DNA of 64,000 nucleotides from Escherichia coli phage phiS: the sequence record PP449093.1. One strand, written 5' to 3'. Below the pieces are notes generated by a model, which was given only the letters and a program-made list of their open reading frames with translations, was not told the DNA's origin and made no database searches. The position numbers and the translations under genes were made by a program. How positions within the stretch are numbered: position 1 is the stretch's first letter; each line of letters starts with the position of its first letter. Positions 45,250 through 46,989 of the stretch are shown here, in pieces.

Positions 45250-45666
45250 ATGGAATTTAAAGCAATTCAAATCATGAAAGGTGAGCATAAAGGTACTATT
45301 ATTGGTGGACACTTCGCGCCTATGATTCTGGTATCCGAACCGAAAGCACTGATCGGCGCTAAAGTAATTGTTAGTAAAACTTTCGCAGAAGACCATGTGA
45401 TCACCGCAGAAGACGTCGATTCTCTGGCACTGCACACAACTAGCTTCCGTCCTGTTTATATCGAAGATAGTATTGGTATGAAGCGAGGATCTCAACATCT
45501 CAACGTCAATGTAATGAATCGCGACCTTCTTCTGGATGCGGTAGAGAATCCGGATAAATATCCATCACTAACTGTACGAATTTCAGGCTATGCGGTCAGA
45601 TTTAATGCACTTACGCCGGAACAACAACGAGATATCATTACCCGAACCTTCACGGAAGCAATGTAA
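45250..45666 (+). CDS. grcA: autonomous glycyl radical cofactor (GrcA/YfiD-like)
   Basis: C-terminus [59 protein letters not shown] carries the glycyl radical motif RxSGYAVRF and closely resembles recalled E. coli GrcA. Confidence 0.85.
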   Translation: [138 protein letters not shown]

Positions 45667-45672
45667 TTTTTT

Positions 45673-45705
45673 AAGCCAATCCTAAAGGGTTGGCTTTTTC
45701 TTTTT
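45673..45705 (+). terminator. Rho-independent terminator after grcA
   Basis: Hairpin AGCCAATCCTAAAGGGTTGGCT followed by TTTTTCTTTTT. Confidence 0.6.
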
Positions 45706-45749
45706 ATTGTGATATGATGACAAAACTTAACAACATGGAGATTGACATT

Positions 45750-46277
45750 ATGATTAAAAGATATTGTGACGACCATCCGGTGGAAGAGTGGAAAGTGATT
45801 GAGGATCTTTATCCGTTAACTCATTTTGAGATTAGCTCTCATGGTCGAGTTAGAAATTCTATTACCGGAAAATATTTGTCTATTGTTGAAACGAAAGATT
45901 ATACTAAAGTTTCTTTTAAGCATCGTCCTAGTAAAACGCATAAAACTTTAAACATGCATAGGATGATGGCTGTTGCGTTTATTCCTAATCCTAATAATTA
46001 TCGTGTAGTTAACCATAAGGATGGAAACAAGAGAAATTTTGACCTGTACAATCTTGAATGGACTACAGACACGCGAAATCTTGCTCATGCAAAGGAAGAA
46101 GGGTTAAACAAAAATTGGGGAGAGAACCACGGAAACGCAAAACTAACAGATAAGCAAGTGAAAGAGATTTTAGCTTCTCCACATATGAAAGGTGTAGAGC
46201 TTGCAAGAAAATATAATGTTACCCCTGCCACAATTAGCCGTGTCCGAAATGGTAAAGTCCGTAACGTCAAATACTAA
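45750..46277 (+). CDS. HNH homing endonuclease (NUMOD4-type N-terminus, C-terminal HTH)
   Basis: NUMOD4-like EEWKVIEDLYPLTHFEISSHGRVRN; HNH-like VNHKDGNKRNFDLYNLEWTT; C-terminal HTH ARKYNVTPATISRVRNG. Confidence 0.7.
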   Translation: MIKRYCDDHPVEEWKVIEDLYPLTHFEISSHGRVRNSITGKYLSIVETKDYTKVSFKHRPSKTHKTLNMHRMMAVAFIPNPNNYRVVNHKDGNKRNFDLYNLEWTTDTRNLAHAKEEGLNKNWGENHGNAKLTDKQVKEILASPHMKGVELARKYNVTPATISRVRNGKVRNVKY

Positions 46278-46290
46278 TGAGGGTTTAATT

Positions 46291-46989
46291 ATGCATACAA
46301 TGGTTAAAATGGTTTTCGGATCTCACTTATACGGCCTTGATACTGAAAATTCCGATAAAGATTATCGTGGTATCTTTGTTCCGACTGCGAAAGAAATTAT
46401 CTTAGGATCGATGAAAGAACACTATGACCAAAGCACTAGCGGTCAAGGTATCAAGAACACCAAAGACGATATTGATGTTAATATGTTCAGTCTAAAACGG
46501 TTTATCAATCTGGCATGTAAAGGCGATATCGGCGCTATTGACATGGTGCACGCTCCTAGTAACATGTTGATCGAATCCTCCAGAGAATGGGAATACATCC
46601 GAACACATCGAGATAAATTCTATCATGTTGGTATGTGGGGTTTGTCTGGCTATCTCAAAAAGCAGGTAGCCAAATCTGAAAAGTATTTCAGTAACTGGAA
46701 AGATCTTTCTCATGCTCTGCGTGTTGGTTATCAGCTACTTGAAATCTATCAAACTGGTGATCTACAATTCCCGCTCGCGCGACGTTCTTCTATTTTAGCG
46801 TGTAAGTTAGGAGAAAGAACCTTTGATAATGTGCGGGAAGAATTGAAAGATCTCTACGAGCGTGTTAAACTCGCGCGTGAAGAGGCAAAGAAAAACGGTA
46901 TGCCGGAAGAACCAGATATTGACTTTTGGAAAGATCTATTAGAATATATTCATCTGACAGTTGTTCTGGAACACTATACCCGTGGTTAG
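46291..46989 (+). CDS. predicted nucleotidyltransferase (Pol beta superfamily fold)
   Basis: N-terminal VFGSHLYGLDTENSDKDYRGIF fits the G[SG]-x(9-13)-DxD NTase signature; helical C-terminal domain. Confidence 0.5.
   Translation: MHTMVKMVFGSHLYGLDTENSDKDYRGIFVPTAKEIILGSMKEHYDQSTSGQGIKNTKDDIDVNMFSLKRFINLACKGDIGAIDMVHAPSNMLIESSREWEYIRTHRDKFYHVGMWGLSGYLKKQVAKSEKYFSNWKDLSHALRVGYQLLEIYQTGDLQFPLARRSSILACKLGERTFDNVREELKDLYERVKLAREEAKKNGMPEEPDIDFWKDLLEYIHLTVVLEHYTRG

Follow-up and report, generated by a model that had tools for sequence, protein, structure and literature searches.

Three adjacent genes at positions 45250-46989 of a 64,000-nucleotide stretch of DNA from Escherichia coli phage phiS (sequence record PP449093.1; the whole stretch is referred to as the window) encode Vs.6, a GrcA-like glycyl radical protein, a free-standing HNH homing endonuclease, and NrdC.11, a nucleotidyltransferase of the RlaP family. 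The endonuclease travels with a strongly diverged copy of the half of vs.6 that encodes the radical domain; besides the short form of the RlaP protein, this is the only new point at the locus. Taken together, the genes probably represent a spare part for pyruvate formate-lyase (PFL), a selfish homing endonuclease with a linked cassette, and an RlaP-type NrdC.11, with enzyme activities, biological roles and cut site all being predictions. All three are of kinds already known from RB49- and JSE-like coliphages, with published or annotated counterparts.

Megablast of positions 44600-48300 against 50,697 phage records gave 58 matches at 92-98% identity, every one a Krischvirus, and the gene order is that of JSE; the window is therefore assigned to Krischvirus, T4-type coliphages such as RB49, Phi1 and JSE. 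JSE shows the annotated order endolysin, hypothetical gene (equivalent to an HNH-AP2 open reading frame of the window), vs.8, a small open reading frame, vs.6, homing endonuclease, nrdC.11, three small open reading frames, regB, vs.1, vs, tk.4 and tk, and that of Phi1 is the same minus the HNH-AP2 gene and the homing endonuclease. Positions 45250-46989 thus fall in the Krischvirus early-gene region. The original prediction, made from the DNA letters without database searches, had placed three open reading frames here; these are confirmed on the + strand, coordinates included, and the annotation of JSE names their counterparts vs.6, homing endonuclease and nrdC.11. The features of the locus are:

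45250-45666, + strand: vs.6, a 138-residue autonomous glycyl radical protein (open reading frame, Pfam, PDB matches, JSE and Phi1 annotation)
45586-45588, + strand: GGC codon for Gly113, which is predicted to carry the radical (RISG113Y) and which phmmer aligns with PflB Gly734
45673-45706, + strand: intrinsic terminator 3' of vs.6, with a 10-bp stem (AAGCCAATCC/GGGTTGGCTT) and a T run after it (terminator scan)
45750-46277, + strand: free-standing HNH homing endonuclease of 175 residues, with a NUMOD4-like N-terminus, HNH_3 and a C-terminal helix-turn-helix
46291-46989, + strand: nrdC.11, a 232-residue short-form RlaP (PF10127) nucleotidyltransferase of the Pol-beta fold (Pfam, PHROG 388, T4 alignment, AlphaFold2)
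45453-46277, + strand: swapped block comprising vs.6 codons 69-138, the terminator, the spacer and the endonuclease gene (sharp bounds, identity profile, allele tables)

Radical-domain cassettes and their endonucleases

The swapped block has sharp bounds. The window and JSE show no mismatch over 45200-45452, and of the 238 mismatches scored over 45200-46700, 230 fall in 45453-46268 and the other eight are scattered over 46314-46572. In a sliding identity profile, the window, JSE and Phi1 are 95-100% identical except at the endonuclease inserts and in the 3' half of vs.6, where identity is 55-68%. Across ten phage genomes, vs.6 codons 1-68 and nrdC.11 are 97-100% and 97-99% identical at the nucleotide level, respectively, and codons 70-138 of vs.6 fall into distinct cassettes that share 58-77% of nucleotides and 66-86% of amino acids. 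Third-position identity over the last 60 codons is only 20-50%, which amounts to saturation, and the divergence among cassettes exceeds that among the E. coli genes grcA, pflB and tdcE. The radical-glycine motif is kept in all five cassette alleles, and the stem of the terminator hairpin (45673-45696) is invariant across all five alleles aligned; the same terminator is annotated in G2248 and Makalu_001. At least five radical-domain cassettes occupy the 3' half of vs.6, distributed as follows:

Cassette A with endonuclease 1a: the window; metagenome contig L017 (cassette 95% identical in nucleotides, endonuclease 98% in amino acids)
Cassette B with endonuclease 1b: JSE, Whisky, 011D4
Cassette B without endonuclease: FL15, KFS-EC
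Cassette C without endonuclease: Phi1, RB49, PHB13, Makalu_001, L018, L019 and the others among the ~58 records
Cassette D with endonuclease 2: nine of nine records; cassette D was never found without endonuclease 2
Cassette E with endonuclease 2b: L020
B/C mosaic without endonuclease: G2248, with the switch at codons 100-102

The four endonuclease variants are each tied to a cassette of their own. Variants 1a and 1b differ at 25% of amino acids and their cassettes at 33% of nucleotides, the corresponding values for 2 and 2b being 40% and 24%; endonuclease divergence and cassette divergence go together.

The endonuclease open reading frame of the window extends over 45690-46277. Its probable start is the ATG at 45750, which yields 175 residues; a GGAG ribosome-binding site supports this start, as does an independent gene call on L017. 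In-frame alternatives lie at 45714 and 45735. The HNH assignment of the original prediction holds, with matches to Pfam HNH_3 (26.8 bits, cut-off 24.8), to PHROG 59 'HNH endonuclease' (E 3.5e-37) and to the PADLOC homing-endonuclease model (E 6e-15). The accompanying NUMOD4 label is weaker than had been stated, scoring 20.6 bits (E 5e-4) under a Pfam cut-off of 23.4, and close homologs have precomputed NUMOD4 matches. The protein is 75% identical (~78% in nucleotides) to the JSE 'Homing endonuclease' and 98% identical to metagenome protein P0388.

Among Krischvirus records, a related gene occurs at this site only in JSE, 011D4 and Whisky. Most records, including Phi1, RB49 and FL15, have no endonuclease here, and the spacer between vs.6 and nrdC.11 measures 86 nucleotides in Phi1 versus 624 in the window. 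A different HNH gene of 197 residues, 28% identical to that of the window, is found in MIZ4, MIZ5, pEJ01, FL20, LF73P4, AV108, JK32, FL04 and G37-3, and metagenome contig L020 carries a further variant that is 60% identical to the MIZ4 type. All of these genes are positioned in the ~85-nucleotide spacer that separates the terminator of vs.6 from the ribosome-binding site of nrdC.11. Every insert lies within ~15 nucleotides, bounded by GATATGATG and TGAGGG, immediately ahead of the nrdC.11 start. One insertion stretch is thus shared by two endonuclease lineages, with two diverged variants each, or is an empty spacer. At the 5' end of the gene, the window has a 33-nucleotide in-frame insertion relative to JSE (45714-45749) that supplies the GGAG for ATG 45750. 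The JSE and MIZ4 starts are preceded by GAGGTGA; the window has ATTGTGA in that place, the GAGGTGA having been lost.

Intronless homing with co-conversion is established for the Seg and Mob endonucleases of T4, and T-even free-standing endonucleases cut at a distance from their own gene, repair then co-converting the donor flank (PMC2988022). Because the pattern at the present locus is as for these enzymes, the endonuclease most likely cuts endonuclease-free relatives in or beside the radical-domain segment of vs.6, and repair of the double-strand break would copy both the endonuclease and its cleavage-resistant, linked cassette into the cut genome. A more specific version, which is tentative, is that the endonucleases recognize vs.6 radical-domain DNA and that each carries a recoded, cleavage-immune copy of it, with at least four drive/immunity pairs competing in Krischvirus. 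If this were true, phages would trade the radical-domain cassette among themselves as a mobile module and, as T4 shows, also with host grcA, and the endonucleases might cut host grcA, pflB or tdcE as well.

The T4 case bears on an alternative in which cassette diversity is not driven by the endonucleases at all. The last 185 nucleotides of T4 vs.6 (positions 23558-23742 of the T4 sequence compared) are identical at 182 positions to E. coli grcA (positions 401-585 of the sequence compared), and the match begins with the opening codon of the radical domain and runs through the stop codon; T4 vs.6 is therefore a chimera with a near-copy of the host cassette, and T4 and its host have exchanged precisely this segment. 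Repeated gene conversion by the host genes grcA, pflB or tdcE, or selection to match the glycyl radical enzymes of the host, might likewise have diversified the Krischvirus cassettes, the endonucleases having merely landed beside a recombination-prone segment. Such a scenario draws further support from the occurrence of two alleles (B and C) and of mosaics in endonuclease-free phages, and from differences among alleles close to the radical site, for instance YAV versus YAT and RVSGY versus RISGY. It is nonetheless judged unlikely. In comparison with E. coli genes, the window cassette reaches 72-74% nucleotide identity at best (tdcE), and 64-69% to grcA, tdcE and pflB over the last 60 codons. 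Moreover, the diverged block ends on its right exactly at the stop codon of the endonuclease, and every endonuclease variant has its own cassette, both co-diverging, which argues for endonuclease-driven homing over host conversion. Recent capture of the window cassette from E. coli was also considered and was rejected on the same 72-74% identity.

The locus provides a clean natural data set for intronless homing, comprising five cassettes, two endonuclease lineages with two variants each, an empty site and mosaics. The variation in cassette and endonuclease sits in otherwise near-identical genomes, and both the cut position and the immune alleles can be predicted and tested.

Vs.6 and its predicted target

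The claim that vs.6 encodes a GrcA/YfiD homolog is upheld. Vs.6 matches Pfam Gly_radical (54.5 bits, cut-off 22.2) and PHROG 1209 (E 2e-45), and its best PDB sequence match is E. coli GrcA (PDB entry 6owr, E 1.6e-27), to which residues 37-137 align. In a phmmer search of PDB sequences, residues 79-138 match residues 700-759 of PFL (PDB entry 1h16, E 5e-26), placing Gly113 opposite Gly734, the radical glycine of PFL. The glycine radical site, the loss of which had been named as grounds for doubt, is thus retained within RISGY. Of the last 60 residues, 45 are identical to PflB (700-759) and 42 to GrcA, and the N-terminal part is also alignable with GrcA. Identity to T4 Vs.6 is 51%.

T4 Y06I, which is Vs.6, and E. 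coli YfiD reactivate oxygen-cleaved PFL after activation by the PFL-activating enzyme (PFL-AE), according to Wagner 2001 as cited in PMC8683613. Judged from its homologs T4 Y06I and E. coli GrcA, Vs.6 would receive the radical on Gly113 from host PFL-AE and would then substitute for the C-terminal radical domain of host PFL cleaved by oxygen at Gly734. In this way Vs.6 may keep the supply of acetyl-CoA and formate going in micro-oxic infected cells. Host PFL is accordingly the target that the sequence relationships support.

The original prediction had looked to a different partner, the anaerobic ribonucleotide reductase NrdD of the phage itself, the oxygen-damaged glycyl radical domain of which Vs.6 would repair or replace. 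The phage does encode nrdD, the N-terminal part of which lies at 62797-63675, and an RVSGY motif stands at the NrdD end. An early comparative paper guessed at a role of vs.6 in nucleotide metabolism (PMC1524935), and PMC8683613 considers it possible that glycyl radical enzymes besides PFL have spare parts too. Homology does not bear this proposal out. BLASTP of Vs.6 against the 620-residue Phi1 NrdD found nothing beyond the five-residue motif R-V/I-S-G-Y (E = 3). T4 NrdD structures are deposited in the PDB, and no NrdD chain is among the 33 PDB matches of Vs.6. The domain is of the PFL type, 75% identical to the PflB C-terminus, and the T4 ortholog works on PFL together with PFL-AE, as described in PMC8683613. 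Repair of NrdD by Vs.6 is therefore considered very unlikely. A link between the two proteins is possible at most indirectly, via formate, a product of PFL and the hydrogen donor (reductant) of the E. coli class III ribonucleotide reductase (Mulliez 1995, as listed in PMC13450708).

NrdC.11 as an RlaP-family nucleotidyltransferase

The 232-residue protein was originally recognized by a nucleotidyltransferase signature, and this has been borne out: G10-S11 is followed after ten residues by D22-x-D24, and G10, S11, D22, D24, D60, D62 and D84, along with other residues, are invariant in 42 homologs. D60, D62 and D84 are candidates for the third metal-ligand carboxylate. Of the families that had been proposed for a profile search, RlaP is the one found (Pfam PF10127, 53.6 bits, cut-off 23), with residues 7-191 aligned to positions 24-198 of the 249-position profile. 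The cGAS/CD-NTase, CCA-adding and MNT families gave no match to NrdC.11 in Pfam or PADLOC, and cGAS structures match its model merely at E 0.07-0.16 with a probability <0.2. NrdC.11 also matches PHROG 388 (E 2.9e-80) and has no match in NCBIfam or PADLOC as a whole. PDB sequence searches with NrdC.11 alone or with a profile of the 42 homologs returned nothing meaningful, no PDB sequence reaching E <= 0.1 with the profile; the crystal structure of the Pseudomonas enzyme PfRlaP apparently lies outside the PDB copy searched.

NrdC.11 of the window is a short form. Its identity to T4 NrdC.11 is 32% if a gap of ~100 residues is left aside, which corresponds to a helical insertion after residue 130 in T4-type NrdC.11 (~336 residues) that is absent from the 232-residue form. 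The short form is contiguous on the RlaP profile, whereas T4 NrdC.11 covers just positions 24-142. An exhaustive HMMER search yielded 3575 cluster representatives at E <= 1e-3, and the nearest of these are almost all long forms, with few short ones among them: P0002 (234 residues), P0273 (231), P0260 (258) and P0346 (248). The AlphaFold2 model of NrdC.11 (predicted local distance difference test 91.7, predicted template modeling score 0.88) comprises an N-terminal alpha/beta nucleotidyltransferase domain followed by a helical domain. On L020 (4854-5528), the nrdC.11 homolog is called as two overlapping open reading frames of 125 and 123+ residues, the DNA being 92% identical to that of the window; the split may reflect a frameshift, either real or an assembly error.

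A preprint of December 2025 assigns T4 NrdC.11 to the RlaP family (PMC12776372). It reports that two Pseudomonas RlaP enzymes, PfRlaP and PaRlaP, extend RNA 3'-OH ends by one or two nucleotides, favor broken tRNA mimics and use no DNA acceptors in vitro. It further proposes that RlaP restores nucleotides taken by nucleases such as RloC before ligation, a prediction also made in PMC7824862. By family membership, NrdC.11 would lengthen RNA at the 3'-OH end by one or two nucleotides without a template, and such addition could let the phage enzymes Pnkp and Rnl1 repair tRNAs that a host anticodon nuclease has also trimmed of a nucleotide. Phi1 encodes pseT (Pnkp) and rnlA, so that ligation partners exist in this phage genus, though not beside nrdC.11.

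The structural neighbors of the model raise a second possibility, in which NrdC.11 makes or mimics a signal directed against host defense, for example an oligodeoxyadenylate like that by which HalB silences the Hailong system. Its best structural matches are indeed Hailong HalB (PDB entry 9dbh) and ANT(4') kanamycin nucleotidyltransferase. The HalB match is weak, however, at 13% identity and a template modeling (TM) score of 0.4-0.5, and is tied with the ANT(4') aminoglycoside nucleotidyltransferases. The 42-homolog profile that fails to reach E <= 0.1 with any PDB sequence fails with HalB included, and no PADLOC model matches NrdC.11. Pfam places the protein in RlaP, the characterized members of which used no DNA acceptors (PMC12776372), and a role in defense signaling is regarded as highly improbable. 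With the biochemistry of the family only just described, the short NrdC.11 offers a compact phage representative for testing RlaP function, and a phage carrying Pnkp and Rnl1 makes the action of RlaP against nucleotide-trimming anticodon nucleases testable by phage genetics.

The locus as a whole and its known counterparts

The three genes had been listed as standing in a row. Since the endonuclease is missing from most close relatives, and vs.6 (between vs.7 and vs.5) and nrdC.11 lie ~7.5 kb apart in T4, the three are functionally unrelated and form no functional unit. They require no new biology and can be annotated as a vs.6 PFL spare part, a homing endonuclease and an nrdC.11 RlaP nucleotidyltransferase.

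Several points weigh against the combined interpretation of PFL spare part, homing endonuclease with linked cassette and RlaP-type repair enzyme. Linkage is not absolute, cassette B being found with no endonuclease in FL15 and KFS-EC. The predicted target could be the empty spacer rather than vs.6, which would be equally compatible with the right-hand boundary. No donor of the cassettes turned up: in the phage database, cassette A reaches 76% nucleotide identity at best, and a non-exhaustive search of 5.8 billion proteins listed nothing above 80% identity. That search also missed a Vs.6 protein on L017 identical at 137 of 138 residues, and no claim of uniqueness is therefore made for the vs.6 allele of the window. 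On the NCBIfam GrcA equivalog model TIGR04365, which was built on bacterial GrcA and from which phage Vs.6 differs at the N-terminus, Vs.6 scores 116.2 bits, below the cut-off of 170; for that reason it is described as a GrcA-like protein, by sequence an ortholog of T4 Vs.6, rather than as GrcA proper. No RNA ligase gene adjoins nrdC.11, its neighbors being vs.6, the endonuclease and small open reading frames, and pseT and rnlA of Phi1 lie ~75 kb from nrdC.11, a region outside the window. RlaP activity is known from just two Pseudomonas enzymes in a preprint (PMC12776372). Finally, laboratory deletion of the T4 segments that contain vs.6 and nrdC.11 is possible for both genes (PMC9825161).

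Searches for regulatory elements found no T4-type late promoter TATAAATA near the three genes, and a sigma-70 scan gave 20 sites against 16.6 +/- 5.2 expected. A candidate promoter at 45690-45718 (TTGGCT-17-TGaTATGAT) was rejected, the scan count being near expectation and the match not conserved in MIZ4. Rfam has no match in the window, the interruption of nrdD described below included.

Further endonuclease genes occur in the window. A second free-standing endonuclease (43991-44566; HNH_3 and AP2, 191 residues) occupies the spacer between endolysin and vs.8; Phi1 lacks it, and its nucleotide identity to the corresponding JSE segment is 99-100%. On L018-L020, the same spacer holds a different 175-residue NUMOD4-HNH gene, 54% identical to the endonuclease at 45750-46277. 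As different endonuclease genes are found there in the window and JSE versus L018-L020, and none in Phi1, the endolysin-vs.8 spacer is a second insertion hotspot. A third HNH_3 and AP2 open reading frame (58514-59269, 251 residues) lies on the same strand directly downstream of a dam-type methyltransferase open reading frame (57720-58490); in Phi1, dam adjoins nrdC with no gene between.

The nrdD gene (62797-63675) ends after codon 290, while Phi1 NrdD runs uninterrupted to 620 residues. It is followed by intron-like sequence (63676-64000) in which an HNH endonuclease open reading frame begins at 63786 and continues past the window end. The interruption is common only to JSE (98.6%), and its first ~80 nucleotides are 90% identical to sequence in Phapecoctavirus nrdD genes; the Rfam null at this position is probably due to the element being cut by the window end. 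Downstream of nrdC.11, three tandem small open reading frames (47011-47842; 64, ~81 and ~111 residues) are mutual paralogs (phrog_6261, phrog_15978). The third is named 'RegB-like' in some GenBank records, for which profile searches give no support.

Compared with known systems, Vs.6 resembles T4 Vs.6 (Y06I) and E. coli GrcA in being a stand-alone ~14 kDa protein with a GrcA-like N-terminus and a PFL-type C-terminal radical domain, the radical glycine lying within R-[VI]-S-G-Y-A-V-R-F-N. The genomic neighborhood, between vs.8 and regB, is also that of T4 vs.6. It differs from both proteins in an 18-residue longer, Krischvirus-specific N-terminal part, in a radical domain that is merely 68-70% identical, and in falling under the NCBIfam equivalog cut-off. 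In contrast to T4 vs.6, the domain segment of which is a near-copy of host grcA, the segment in the window is one of at least five interchangeable, endonuclease-tied cassettes.

The endonuclease shares with SegF, SegG and MobE of T-even phages, and with EpJSE_00101 of JSE, an intergenic position and the orientation of its neighbors. As for T-even free-standing endonucleases generally, it is polymorphic for presence and absence among close relatives and has a one-sided diverged flank, consistent with co-conversion and marker exclusion. In contrast to that of SegF, SegG and MobE, its cleavage activity is putative. A further difference from the T-even and JSE endonucleases is that here two lineages, of two variants each, compete for one spacer, each variant with its own cassette. 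In T4, the HNH gene mobD likewise lies directly upstream of nrdC.11, which it overlaps (positions 15436-17209 of the T4 sequence compared), though MobD has no similarity to the window endonuclease; as the two are unrelated, an ancestral endonuclease-nrdC.11 unit shared with T4 was rejected.

NrdC.11 has in common with T4 NrdC.11, PfRlaP and PaRlaP an RlaP profile score above the cut-off, the invariant GS...DxD and aspartates, and a nucleotidyltransferase domain followed by a helical domain. At 232 residues it lacks the helical insertion of the 336-residue T4 protein, and such short forms are rare among its nearest relatives. With HalB and ANT(4') it shares a Pol-beta nucleotidyltransferase domain packed against a helical bundle, at 11-16% identity, a TM score of at most 0.5 and no sequence-profile match.

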